A program made the position numbers and the translations under genes. Source: Octopus vulgaris (taxonomy: Eukaryota). Taken from it: DNA of 64,000 nucleotides. Of this stretch, positions 6,765 to 59,626 are shown piece by piece (the stretch's first letter is position 1; each line of letters starts with the position of its first letter). The notes below the pieces were generated by a model that had not been told where the DNA came from, searched no databases, and saw only the letters and a program-made list of their open reading frames with translations. Where the stretch lies: NCBI GenBank assembly GCA_951406725.2, contig OX597822.1, positions 100,936,001 to 101,000,000 on the forward strand. Direction: 5' to 3'.

Positions 6765-7327
6765 CGTATTTCTTCTGTCGTTACGTTCCGAGTTCAAATT
6801 CTGCCGAGGTCGACTTTGCCTTTCATTCTTTCGGGGTCGATAAATTAAGTACCAGTTACGCACTGGGGGGTCGATGTAATTGACTTAATCCCTTTGTCTG
6901 TCCTTATTTGTCCCCTCTGTGTTTAGCCCCTTCTGGGTAGTAAAGAAATAGGTATTTCGTCTGTCGTTACGTTCCGAGTTCAAATTCCGCCGAGGTCGAC
7001 TTTGCCTTTCATTCTTTCGGGGTCGATCAATTAAGTACCAGTTACGCACTGGGGGTCGATGTAATTGACTTAATCCCTTTGTCTGTCCTTGTTTGTCCCC
7101 TCTGTGTTTAGCCCCTTCTGGGTAGTAAAGAAATAGGTATTTCGTCTGTCGTTACGTTCCGAGTTCAAATTCCGCCGAGGTCGACTTTGCCTTTCATTCT
7201 TTCGGGGTCGATAAATTACGTACCAGTTACGCACTGGGGGTCGATGTAATTGACTTAATCCCTTTGTCTGTCCTTGTTTGTCCCGTCTGTGTTTAGCCCC
7301 TTGTGGGTAGTAAAGAAATAGAAATAA
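6765..7327 (+). mobile_element. SINE family C body as three tandem ~185-bp units with a 16-bp TSD
   Basis: Units start at about 6766, 6952 and 7137. ATTATATAAATCACGT occurs at 6749-6764 and 7328-7343. Confidence 0.9.
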
Positions 7328-22276: not shown

Positions 22277-22439
22277 GGTGGATCTCCGTCGTTCGAAAAT
22301 GAATATTCAGTTATTCGACCTACTGAATAACCTATTCTTCGACTAACGTGTAAGTTTATATATATATATATATCTACCTACCTTCTCTATAATGTTGCCA
22401 CTTGATATGAAAATTTTTGTATTAATGGGAAACCTCTAT

Positions 22440-22530
22440 AATTGGCTGATGAGTGCTCAGCATATTAAAACTGTTGTAATACTTACAACATTTAATAAGA
22501 TGATGTAGTACGAAACGATCGTACCAAATT
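22440..22530 (+). ncRNA. Type I hammerhead ribozyme with extended stem II
   Basis: TTGG-CTGATGA-GTGCT...[TATTAAA/TGTTGTAA-TAC-TTACAACA/TTTAATA hairpin]...AGTAC-GAAAC-GATC-GTA-CCAA. Predicted cleavage is after 22523. Confidence 0.85.
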
Positions 22531-22883
22531 ACCGGAGTCATTCTTGTTGCTTATTTTGATTATAATCACCCCACGGATTTTTGTGGATAACACCATACAG
22601 AATTCTGGTGCATCTAAATTAACTACCATATTCATTTGAATCTAAATTTTTGCTGAACTCCCTCGGCTATTAAATGCTATTTTTGGCCTGCTATCGCCTG
22701 TTTCATTGATATTTTGTTATTATCATTTTTAAAATAGTTACATTGGATAATAATAGAATTAATGACACCTTCGCAAATTAATTTTTCGTAAATTATTTTT
22801 CTCGTAAAATGTATCGAGATTATTTTACACTGGTGGCTGATGTGATTTCAAAACGATGCGCTGGGAATCTCTAATCATGGTAA

Positions 22884-22937
22884 CGCGTGCTGAAGAAGCT
22901 AAGGCTTATTTTGCCAGTGCAGAAACCGGTCCACGTG
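22884..22937 (+). ncRNA. Type I hammerhead ribozyme
   Basis: CGCGTG-CTGAAGA-AGC...GC-A-GAAAC-CG-GTC-CACGTG. It has a 6-bp stem I, a palindromic stem III ACCGGT and cleavage after GTC at 22931. Confidence 0.8.
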
Positions 22938-23240
22938 AGTCCAGATATTTAAATGCATGTTACTAGAGTGTCTTAACCTGATTTTGCCTTCGTTTGATTT
23001 CTGTAGTTATTATCAGTGTATTTTTTGCGATTTAATAAGAGTTATGACTGTTATTTCAAGCAGGTAGACATACTTACTATGTCCTTTGATTAATTTTAAT
23101 CCCTCGGCTATTAAATGCTATTTTTGGCCTGCTATCGCCTGTTTCATTGATATTCTGTTATTATCATTTTTAAATAGTTACATTGGATAATAATAGAATT
23201 AATGATACTTTCGCAAATTAATTCTTCGTATATATATATC

Positions 23241-23286
<46 letters not shown>

Positions 23287-23289
23287 AAT

Positions 23290-23630
23290 AGGCGCAGGAG
23301 TGGCTGGTTCCGGGTTCAGTCCCACTGCGTGGCATCTTGGGCAAGTGTCTTCTGCTATAGCCCAATGGGCAAGTGTCTTCTGCGATAGCCCTTGTGAGTG
23401 GATTTGGTAGGCGGAAACTGAAAGAAGCCTGTCGTATATGTGTATATACATATATATGTGTGTGTGTGTGTATGTGTTTGTGTGTCTGTGTTTGTCCCCC
23501 GTCATTTAGCGGTTCGGCAAAAAAGACTGATAGAATAAGTACTGGGCTTACAAAGAATAAGTCCTGGGGTCGATTTGCTCGACTAAAAGGAGGTGCTCCA
23601 GCATGGCCGCAGTCAAATGACTGAAACTAG
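23290..23630 (+). mobile_element. SINE family A, internally deleted
   Basis: Homology to other family A copies. Confidence 0.85.
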
Positions 23631-24006: not shown

Positions 24007-24087
24007 TCTCGACATATGTTTCGAAGACTGCATATTCTTAATTCCGGAGGAATAAAGGGTGCATTATGCCGTCTTCTCATCAGGAAA
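24007..24087 (-). ncRNA. Type I hammerhead ribozyme
   Basis: Minus strand reads TTTC-CTGATGA-GAAGAC...GTCTTC-GAAAC-ATAT-GTC-GAGA, with a perfect 6-bp stem II base. Confidence 0.85.
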
Positions 24088-24829: not shown

Positions 24830-25457
24830 TACTCTTTTACTCTTTTACTTGTTTCAGTCATTTGACTGTGGCCATGCTGGAGCACCGTCTTTATTTCTTA
24901 TTTCTTTACTGCCCACAAGGGGCTAAACACAGAGGGGACAAACAAGGACAGACAAACGGATTTAGTAGATTATATCACCCCCAGAGCGTAACTGGTACTT
25001 ATTTAATCGACTCCGAAAGGATGAAAGGCGAAGTCGACCTCGGCGGAATTTGACCTCAGAACGTAGCGGTAGACGAAATACCTATTTCTTTACTACTCAC
25101 AAGGGGCTAAACACAGAGGGGACAAACAAGGACAGACAAACGGATTAAGTCGATTACATCGACTCCAGTGCGTAACTGGTTCTTAATTTATCGACCTCGA
25201 AAGGATGAAAGGCAAAGTCGACCTCGGCGGAATTTGAACTCAGAACGTAAAGACAGACGAAATACCGCTAAGCATTTCGCCCGGCGTGCTAACGATTCTG
25301 CCAGTTCGCCGCCTTTAGTCGAGCAAATCGACCCCAGGACTTATTCTTTGTAAGCCTAGTACTTATTCTACTGGTCTCTTTTGCCGAACCGCTAAGTTAC
25401 GGGGACGTAAATACATCAGCATCGGTTGTCAAGCTATGTTGAGTGGGACAAGAACAA

Positions 25458-56822: not shown

Positions 56823-56890
<68 letters not shown>

Positions 56891-57047
56891 AAATAAATAT
56901 AAGAGAGTGGTCACTATATTGATCACTCTAGCACCAGTTAATCCAAAAGGTTTCAACCACGAAAAATACATGTTTCCCATGAAAGCCGGTACGACTGTTA
57001 GCTCACACGGACAGGGCAAATAAAAAATAACAAAAATACAGATTATT

Positions 57048-57123
57048 TTGGGACAATTGTTTCGCTATTAATGAATTAAATGTAATATTACTTACAGTAA
57101 TCCATTTGTAGCTCTTCAGCCAA
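57048..57123 (-). ncRNA. Type I hammerhead ribozyme (array copy L1, GUC site)
   Basis: Minus strand reads TTGG-CTGAAGA-GCTA...TAGC-GAAAC-AATT-GTC-CCAA. Confidence 0.88.
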
Positions 57124-57581
57124 GACTATCTGGATGAAATCCACTCAATCACACGCCAGATTTTACCATAACGATAAATACGCGTGCGGTTCAATTGATT
57201 ACATCGGACGTTATAATTCAAATGCCCCAACCAACAGCGCGCCAAACTCTCACGGAAAACAAATACAGCATTTAGAAATAAATGCAGCATAATTATAATT
57301 AATTAATAAGGGTGAGAGAATTAGATACTAATTTAATAGTATATTTATTCCACACCAAGTGGCCTAGTGCTACGAGAAACCTGGATTATTATAATATTTT
57401 ATAACATATTATAATATTTTCACAAAATAAATATAAGAGAGTGGTCACTATATTGATCACTCTAGCACCAGTTAATCCAAAAGGTTTCAACCACGAAAAA
57501 TACATGTTTCCCATGAAAGCCGGTACGACTGTTAGCTCACACGGACAGGGCAAATAAAAAATAACAAAAATACAGATTATT

Positions 57582-57657
57582 TTGAATCAATTGTTTCGCT
57601 ATTAATGAATTAAATGTAATATTACTTACAGTAATCCATTTGTAGCTCTTCAGCCAA
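57582..57657 (-). ncRNA. Hammerhead copy L2 with altered cleavage triplet (GAT), predicted inactive
   Basis: Reads GAAAC-AATT-GAT-TCAA instead of GTC-CCAA. Confidence 0.75.
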
Positions 57658-58115
57658 GACTATCTGGATGAAATCCACTCAATCACACGCCAGATTTTAC
57701 CATAACGATAAATACGCGTGCGGTTCAATTGATTACATCGGACGTTATAATTCAAATGCCCCAACCAACAGCGCGCCAAACTCTCACGGAAAACAAATAC
57801 AGCATTTAGAAATAAATGCAGCATAATTATAATTAATTAATAAGGGTGAGAGAATTAGATACTAATTTAATAGTATATTTATTCCACACCAAGTGGCCTA
57901 GTGCTACGAGAAACCTGGATTATTATAATATTTTATAACATATTATAATATTTTCACAAAATAAATATAAGAGAGTGGTCACTATATTGATCACTCTAGC
58001 ACCAGTTAATCCAAAAGGTTTCAACCACGAAAAATACATGTTTCCCATGAAAGCCGGTACGACTGTTAGCTCACACGGACAGGGCAAATAAAAAATAACA
58101 AAAATACAGATTATT

Positions 58116-58191
58116 TTGGGACAATTGTTTCGCTATTAATGAATTAAATGTAATATTACTTACAGTAATCCATTTGTAGCTCTTCAGCCAA
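58116..58191 (-). ncRNA. Type I hammerhead ribozyme (array copy L3, GUC site)
   Basis: Same as L1. Confidence 0.88.
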
Positions 58192-58729
58192 GACTATCTG
58201 GATGAAATCCACTCAATCACACGCCAGATTTTACCATAACGATAAATACGCGTGCGGTTCAATTGATTCAAAATAATCTGTATTTTTGTTATTTTTTATT
58301 TGCCCTGTCCGTGTGAGCTAACAGTCGTACCGGCTTTCATGGGAAACATGTATTTTTCGTGGTTGAAACCTTTTGGATTAACTGGTGCTAGAGTGATCAA
58401 TATAGTGACCACTCTCTTATATTTATTTTGTGAAAATATTATAATATGTTATAAAATATTATAATAATCCAGGTTTCTCGTAGCACTAGGCCACTTGGTG
58501 TGGAATAAATATACTATTAAATTAGTATCTAATTCTCTCACCCTTATTAATTAATTATAATTATGCTGCATTTATTTCTAAATGCTGTATTTGTTTTCCG
58601 TGAGAGTTTGGCGCGCTGTTGGTTGGGGCATTTGAATTATAACGTCCGATGTAATCAATTGAACCGCACGCGTATTTATCGTTATGGTAAAATCTGGCGT
58701 GTGATTGAGTGGATTTCATCCAGATAGTC

Positions 58730-58805
58730 TTGGCTGAAGAGCTACAAATGGATTACTGTAAGTAATATTACATTTAATTCATTAATAGCGAAACAATTGA
58801 TTCAA
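58730..58805 (+). ncRNA. Hammerhead copy R1 with altered cleavage triplet (GAT)
   Basis: Mirror image of L2. Confidence 0.75.
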
Positions 58806-59263
58806 AATAATCTGTATTTTTGTTATTTTTTATTTGCCCTGTCCGTGTGAGCTAACAGTCGTACCGGCTTTCATGGGAAACATGTATTTTTCGTGGTTGA
58901 AACCTTTTGGATTAACTGGTGCTAGAGTGATCAATATAGTGACCACTCTCTTATATTTATTTTGTGAAAATATTATAATATGTTATAAAATATTATAATA
59001 ATCCAGGTTTCTCGTAGCACTAGGCCACTTGGTGTGGAATAAATATACTATTAAATTAGTATCTAATTCTCTCACCCTTATTAATTAATTATAATTATGC
59101 TGCATTTATTTCTAAATGCTGTATTTGTTTTCCGTGAGAGTTTGGCGCGCTGTTGGTTGGGGCATTTGAATTATAACGTCCGATGTAATCAATTGAACCG
59201 CACGCGTATTTATCGTTATGGTAAAATCTGGCGTGTGATTGAGTGGATTTCATCCAGATAGTC

Positions 59264-59339
59264 TTGGCTGAAGAGCTACAAATGGATTACTGTAAGTAAT
59301 ATTACATTTAATTCATTAATAGCGAAACAATTGTCCCAA
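59264..59339 (+). ncRNA. Type I hammerhead ribozyme (array copy R2, GUC site)
   Basis: TTGG-CTGAAGA-GCTA...TAGC-GAAAC-AATT-GTC-CCAA. Predicted cleavage is after 59335. Confidence 0.88.
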
Positions 59340-59626
59340 AATAATCTGTATTTTTGTTATTTTTTATTTGCCCTGTCCGTGTGAGCTAACAGTCGTACCG
59401 GCTTTCATGGGAAACATGTATTTTTCGTGGTTGAAACCTTTGGATTAACTGGTGCTAGAGTGATCAATATAGTGACCACTCTCTTATATTTATTTTGTGA
59501 AAATATTATAATATGTTATAAAATATTATAATAATCCAGGTTTCTCGTAGCACTAGGCCACTTGGTGTGGAATAAATATACTATTAAATTAGTATCTAAT
59601 TCTCTCACCCTTATTAATTAATTATA

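Follow-up and report, generated by a model that had tools for sequence, protein, structure and literature searches.

A probable fusion of two hammerhead-bearing Penelope-like families at one TA-bounded locus of Octopus vulgaris

We analysed a 64,000-nucleotide stretch of the Octopus vulgaris genome (assembly GCA_951406725.2, contig OX597822.1, positions 100,936,001 to 101,000,000, forward strand; hereafter the window), taken from a 2.8-Gb assembly of 227 contigs that is rich in microsatellites. Positions 22357-23283 very probably hold a fusion of two separate Penelope-like element (PLE) families, named X and Y here (Table 1). Two hammerhead motifs, HHR1 and HHR2, lie on one strand, and a block of about 130 bp is present twice, as B1 and B2, with a spacing of 441/440 and with four substitutions in 131 columns plus one indel between the copies. 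The initial annotation had described a chimera of pLTR or retrozyme-type units between TA tracts, with two hammerheads on the same strand, a near-identical repeat spaced by ~440 and predicted cleavage sites 408 nt apart, and all of this layout was confirmed. The locus is most likely ordinary transposon debris, with no new two-ribozyme element in it.

Table 1. Parts of the X/Y locus, in window positions
Feature	Position	Strand	Remarks
Left (TA)n target tract	22357..22373	.	last bases also match X at its 5' truncation point
Family X pLTR, 5'-truncated 3' end of a putative Hydra-clade PLE	22374..22659	+	95-97% identical to best other copies; stops at long 3' end
HHR1, type I, long stem II, 8-nt palindromic stem III	22442..22527	+	predicted cut after 22523
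X tail, 95 nt	22565..22659	+	spans short end near 22564 to long end 22659
X/Y junction	22659..22659	+	one base fits both families; no TA in between
B1, first copy of Y tail	22659..22790	+	locus-private changes in common with B2
Y monomer body (U), ORF-less	22791..23099	+	private 33-bp deletion after 22849; stops at short 3' end
HHR2, type I, one-pair stem III, palindromic tetraloop	22884..22937	+	predicted cut after 22931
B2, second copy of Y tail	23100..23230	+	stops at Y long 3' end
Right (TA)n target tract	23229..23283	.	

HHR1 has the core CUGAUGA at 22446-22452, a stem II of 5 bp with a long extension, its palindromic stem III at 22515-22522 and a stem I of 4 bp, and cleavage is predicted after A22523. 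HHR2 has the core CUGAAGA at 22890-22896, an unpaired A on either side of the stem II base, the tetraloop of its stem III at 22925-22930 and a stem I of 6 bp, with cleavage predicted after C22931. Eight type I hammerhead motifs were found in the 64-kb window, compared with a mean of 0.01 and a maximum of one in 100 block shuffles. Pairing was kept by two-sided changes at 6 of 20 pairs of HHR1 (12 sequences) and 3 of 12 pairs of HHR2 (35 sequences), values reached in 0 and 14 of 500 shuffles respectively, in a control that takes no account of relatedness among the sequences and is thus inflated by kinship. Rfam gave no match at gathering score in the whole window, and none of its nine weak matches within 22300-23300 was a hammerhead.

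The repeated block belongs to family Y. Among the best 40 of 308 candidates scored with the block as query, copies elsewhere were at most 94% identical. The initial annotation had regarded the block as a 3' module shared by two units and had proposed a search for the hammerhead types that precede it; Y's own AT-rich body end precedes 62 of 64 exact block starts, the two exceptions being this locus and another Y locus, L184. The block is absent from X at all 29 other loci examined, so the idea of a shared module fails. In a global alignment of the two supposed units only the block aligned. Where more element follows the block, it leads into the sequence from 22791 onward, giving an ORF-less Y monomer of about 473 bp; the spacing of 441 at this locus is accounted for by the 33-bp deletion. 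Where Y meets a microsatellite (63 ends at 52 loci), it stops just before the block in 33 cases (short end), at the block end in 28 (long end) and elsewhere in two. Since these ends fall at its two borders, the block is an optional extension between two 3' ends, and by analogy we regard it as Y's own tail, resembling the PLE tail, defined as the stretch between two reverse transcriptase (RT) start sites (PMC11167929). The suggestion that the block is an RT-recognition signal may therefore hold for Y alone, between its two 3' ends, and fails for a module common to both families. We also considered a TSS at the tail start, and rejected it because six Y loci extend upstream of that point. At L184 (551-892; G000:C7:23954150-23954490), the direct part of the Y locus is tail only and the inverted part is body as far as the short end; the two meet at the first base of the tail, with no overlap, which looks like two primings on one RNA.

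Y copies are 5'-truncated, often with an inverted piece, and a tblastn search of 57 Y loci (some overlapping) with three Hydra-type queries returned no PLE frame. Being a short, AT-rich monomer (473-bp period) devoid of ORFs and equipped with a type I hammerhead, Y resembles metazoan non-LTR retrozymes (PMC7229834; bioRxiv 10.64898/2026.07.22.740005), and its one-pair stem III with palindromic tetraloop is like that described for the axolotl HHR_Amex1. The monomer is, however, slightly above the 150-450 bp quoted for retrozymes, and Y differs from them in being dispersed as partial tandems that reach about 1.7 units at most, in its 5' inversions and in the lack of a direct HHR2 tandem: among 87 exact HHR2 16-mers, a search that mutated copies would escape, none stood in direct tandem and four inverted pairs were seen. 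Among these exact matches, Y thus lacks the two consecutive ribozymes that characterise an active non-LTR retrozyme (bioRxiv 10.64898/2026.07.22.740005). Unlike retrozymes, Y inserts in a PLE-like manner, with two 3' ends, and so would work like a non-autonomous PLE derivative.

With 22372-22660 as query, the best 40 of 2524 candidates that were scored for family X were 95-98% identical. At 29 of 29 other best loci X stops at the base matching 22659 and is followed by (TA)n. Its last 27 bases have 391 exact matches in the genome, continued by A or T in 374 and by C or G in 17; most of the former were classed by their next base only, and all of the latter were read. Seven of these 17 run into TA with one changed base, six into a short extension of a sister subfamily, three into other sequence and one, at this locus, into the block. 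The 3' ends of X, like those of Y, are paired: among 87 alignment ends, 34 were short (near 22564), 46 long (22659) and seven other. In the sister subfamily (L156-L174), further 3' ends were observed up to about 18 nt past the long end of X, which suggests more than two RT start sites.

Longer copies of X carry, on the same strand, an RT frame, then a GIY-YIG endonuclease (EN) frame, then a 3' UTR of 394-1703 nt (from EN stop to HHR1). One copy (L146, X at 91%) encodes 579 aa with YRDD followed by EN; in another (L150, X at 94%) the RT and EN frames are broken. Pfam recognised GIY-YIG in L104 at E=0.0016, weaker than its curated cut-off; it had no match on five longer frames and named nothing useful in five homologues, and neither did a PDB sequence search. 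A homologue search returned 168 RT-like proteins, mostly unnamed. The frames carry DKT (in place of DKG), YRDD, a CxCX5C linker, and CxxC and CxH around a conserved E and N, and RWK was seen, in a shifted frame, in L147, which is related to X at 84%; the X copies recovered all lacked an N-terminus of their own. On reading of the longer frames by eye, CCHH was not seen in the endonuclease.

These motif marks, with RWK taken from the relative, and a by-eye match to a published RT alignment identify X as a putative Hydra-clade PLE. PMC8557442 describes this clade as targeting (TA)n with canonical hammerheads; its members there (for example Hydra-1_Obim), like X, have RT followed by a C-terminal GIY-YIG domain, with RWK, DKT, CxCX5C, CxxC and CxH, a sense-strand hammerhead in the 3' region, a preference for (TA)n, and 5' ends that may be truncated or inverted. 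The canonical hammerhead, (TA)n target, 5' truncation and inversion were all found in X. The resemblance to Hydra-1_Obim, judged by eye, is one of motifs. X at this locus is only the last 286 bases of such an element, and its family differs from the Hydra-clade PLEs described there in a long Asn-rich linker, in the 394-1703 nt from EN stop to HHR1, in the great length of stem II and in a tail of 95 nt. An initial placement of X in the Neptune clade was dropped for Hydra after the motif check, and an antisense ORF upstream in X, which looked coding-like, was assigned to the 3' UTR on account of conserved stops. In L146-L153, RT and the zinc-finger linker of the X-family protein are separated by a long low-complexity stretch rich in Asn, and a sequence of about 225 bp is repeated inside the 3' UTR.

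Both families therefore recall the tail of Poseidon in Anolis (PMC11167929), with two alternative 3' ends, an optional extension and AT-rich targets. Their RT starts are inferred from genomic ends, and their tails measure 95 and about 130 nt against the usual 30-40, three to four times that length. The paired 3' ends would extend the tail rule, with its two RT start sites, to one Hydra-clade element and to a partner that is non-autonomous.

The initial annotation described a heterodimeric double-hammerhead element with a shared 130-bp terminal repeat, whose predicted cleavages would release a 408-nt RNA; as a mobile unit, it would need the two hammerheads to cooperate. The cores are kept, and the one strand, the 408-nt distance and the bounding TA tracts would suit such a unit, but the pairing does not. 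In a double hammerhead the halves of stem III are complementary and the strands of stem I can be exchanged; HHR1 and HHR2 show neither property, with a computed stem III cross-pairing of -2.1 kcal/mol versus -10.0 and -8.3 for the homodimers, and with crossed stem I strands at +0.5 and +1.4, i.e. unpaired. The heterodimer is thus contradicted. Dimeric hammerheads of PLEs and of the newt satellite (PMC4209133) consist of two copies of one motif, whereas HHR1 and HHR2 differ and exchange no strand. Nor is this an LTR retrozyme, which has a type III hammerhead inside each terminal repeat: both motifs here are type I and lie outside the block.

The ribozyme folds were 6.7 and 7.7 kcal/mol above the minimum folds. 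Short palindromic stem III hammerheads are described as acting as dimers of like motifs with weak cleavage (PMC4209133, PMC7229834), eight of nine retrozyme dimers tested failed to cleave (bioRxiv 10.64898/2026.07.22.740005), and in Anolis the hammerhead required protein, while insertion in vitro could proceed without it (PMC11167929). In view of the missing cross-pairing, the costly folds and these precedents, release of the 408-nt RNA, possible in principle, is predicted to be poor and without consequence. A 408-nt circle would rebuild no ribozyme, because the 5' strand of HHR2 would face the 3' strand of HHR1 without pairing. The chimera is predicted to be inert as a unit, and each hammerhead would need a partner from its own family. 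Given also a junction seen once and a block absent from X, a mobile two-hammerhead unit is hardly credible.

We then turned to changes private to this locus. Two substitutions and an insertion of 2 bases are common to B1 and B2, and all 32 other blocks compared lack them. The private block variant (at most one mismatch) has two matches in the genome, both at this locus, and the 33-bp deletion junction (at most two mismatches) has one, also here. Such sharing occurred elsewhere at 4 of 2469 columns in 28 other within-locus Y duplicates, giving P of about 0.02 for two in 128. Private changes common to both blocks imply either that one served as template for the other, or that both derive from a single aged template no longer present elsewhere in the assembly; in these sequences they point to local copying. 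All five differences between B1 and B2 fall from column 58 on and the three shared changes before it; given this sorting by position, copying may have covered less than the full block. B1 ends with A, like the TA junction of B2, while 13 of 14 other natural junctions have G.

Within-locus divergence was 3.07% for X (68/2213 columns, 16 pairs) versus 6.24% for Y (154/2469, 28 pairs; P=3e-7) in samples that are the best matches to this locus, which may bias both clocks; the lower value suggests that X insertions are younger on average. For B1 and B2 (4/131), an X-like rate would yield 4.0 differences and a Y-like rate 8.2 (P=0.09), so that the X-like rate appears to fit better. Private changes in this X copy (5/282) and this Y copy (13/514) could not be told apart (P=0.62), with a background that included the locus's own copies (L154, L155) and hence slightly raised window-base counts.

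Taken together, these data favour, with a probability of about one half, a model in which an older Y copy later received X at the AT-rich boundary of its tail. Y would have entered the TA tract first, as a partial tandem of tail, body and tail copied in trans by the RT of an autonomous PLE. An X ribonucleoprotein would then have cut the AT-rich boundary at the start of the Y tail and primed at X's usual long start site, after which the 5' end of X would have been joined to the left TA tract with loss of the sequence upstream of B1. Around that time, one tail copy may have been overwritten by the other, either by repair synthesis or by local conversion. Other TA tracts where X and Y or further hammerhead families are neighbours (L125, L123 and 4 of 52 Y loci) also speak for this model. 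The identity of both families and of their ends, the private changes and the uniqueness of the junction among the copies examined (one among 391 exact X ends, of which the 17 continued by C or G were read, and among 64 block starts) were observed directly, and from them we infer the order of events. Several points count against this order: the private changes show no age difference between this X copy and this Y copy, an unseen upstream loss and a conversion have to be assumed, no TA is left at the junction, unlike at ordinary X insertions, the Y copy at L184, which breaks off at the first base of the tail, would suit an RT that stopped and then jumped, and the copied tract is perhaps shorter than the block.

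Template switching, by which the initial annotation had joined the two parts, would do without a second insertion. In a single integration, a PLE RT would have copied, as tail, body and once more tail, an RNA made from an already aged Y copy, stopped at the tail start, and jumped to X RNA at X's usual start site to add 286 bases; the junction would then be a fossil of an RT that stopped at the inner start of a parasite RNA, Y, and moved to the start of its own RNA, X. Consistently with such a jump, X starts precisely at its usual long end without intervening TA, X and Y are on the same strand, the B1-B2 divergence (3.05%) equals that within X loci, the second Y cDNA at L184 stops at the tail's first base, and the tail of PLEs is delimited by two internal sites of RT initiation (PMC11167929). 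An aged source copy would, however, be expected in the genome, and the private variant and the deletion junction are found only here. The 87 HHR2 matches without direct tandem leave a circular Y monomer with no evident source, shared and differing block sites are spatially sorted, and the 64 block starts contain no second junction from X to the block. Template switching is a possible route that we place second, since the assembly has no other copy with the private changes. If it were true, a Hydra-clade element would be named as Y's helper, template jumping across families by a PLE RT would be demonstrated, and hammerheads and tails could be swapped by this route between PLE families and retrozymes.

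X and Y could also have met through two independent insertions into one TA tract, followed by deletion of the intervening TA and, independently, by gene conversion of the blocks. Neighbours of this kind exist: X and Y share one TA tract, with TA between them, at L125 (3724-4194), X lies tail-to-tail with a 76% relative in one TA tract at L123 (7000-7762), 4 of 52 Y loci, though 0 of 29 X loci, have a foreign hammerhead no more than 600 bp away, and the window itself holds eight motifs. Against this, the deletion would have to end exactly at the terminal base of X and the first base of the Y tail, and the junction was met once among 391 exact X ends (by next-base class) and once among 64 block starts, which makes this history unlikely. 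An artefact of assembly joining two repeats, for which the uniqueness of the junction among the copies examined would be the argument, is very improbable: B1 and B2 differ at five places and yet share private changes, the junction lies at biologically defined ends of both families, and contiguity is high, with 2.8 Gb in 227 contigs. Contigs from five DNA or unlabelled sequencing runs cover both families, and no piece listed bridges X and Y, a result that is neutral.

Hydra-clade PLEs, pLTR hammerheads, tails, (TA)n targeting and non-autonomous hammerhead repeats have all been described before, and X and Y may already stand in published repeat libraries. Literature searches on chimeric or nested PLE ends returned only unrelated papers, and searches on hammerheads with PLEs in octopus gave no paper on such a junction; in main-text passages of a recent octopus repeat annotation (PMC13282606), hammerheads and Hydra are unmentioned. 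As a unit, the locus matters little, being one probably dead chimera among the very many hammerhead-bearing PLE ends of this genome. The later steps of PLE tandem formation were left unvalidated (PMC11167929), and a TA-free family junction at a tail boundary offers a concrete test of the origin of PLE tandems, by re-insertion into AT-rich sites of their own or by template jumping.

Several other hammerheads and repeats were observed. At L066 (about 1000-1180), a foreign hammerhead family with an inverted piece, seen by eye, abuts the 5' end of Y without TA; it was unflagged by the scan for hammerheads within 600 bp of Y. In the window, a tandem unit of 184-185 bp at 6766-7321 and 24899-25266 looks like a common short interspersed repeat, and other families contribute three further hammerhead-like motifs of type I, each with a palindromic stem III, at 24083 (-), 38884 (-) and 49272 (+), two of them with an unpaired A before GAAA as in HHR2. 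At 56890-59626, flanked by TA tracts, a monomer of 534 bp without ORF forms a very young array (99% identity) that includes an inverted arm. Its five hammerhead copies (57119-, 57653-, 58187-, 58734+ and 59268+) have the architecture of HHR1, with the predicted cut site intact in three and the same change in the other two. This array has the tandem arrangement of a non-LTR retrozyme together with a PLE-type inversion, and is more promising than the chimera.
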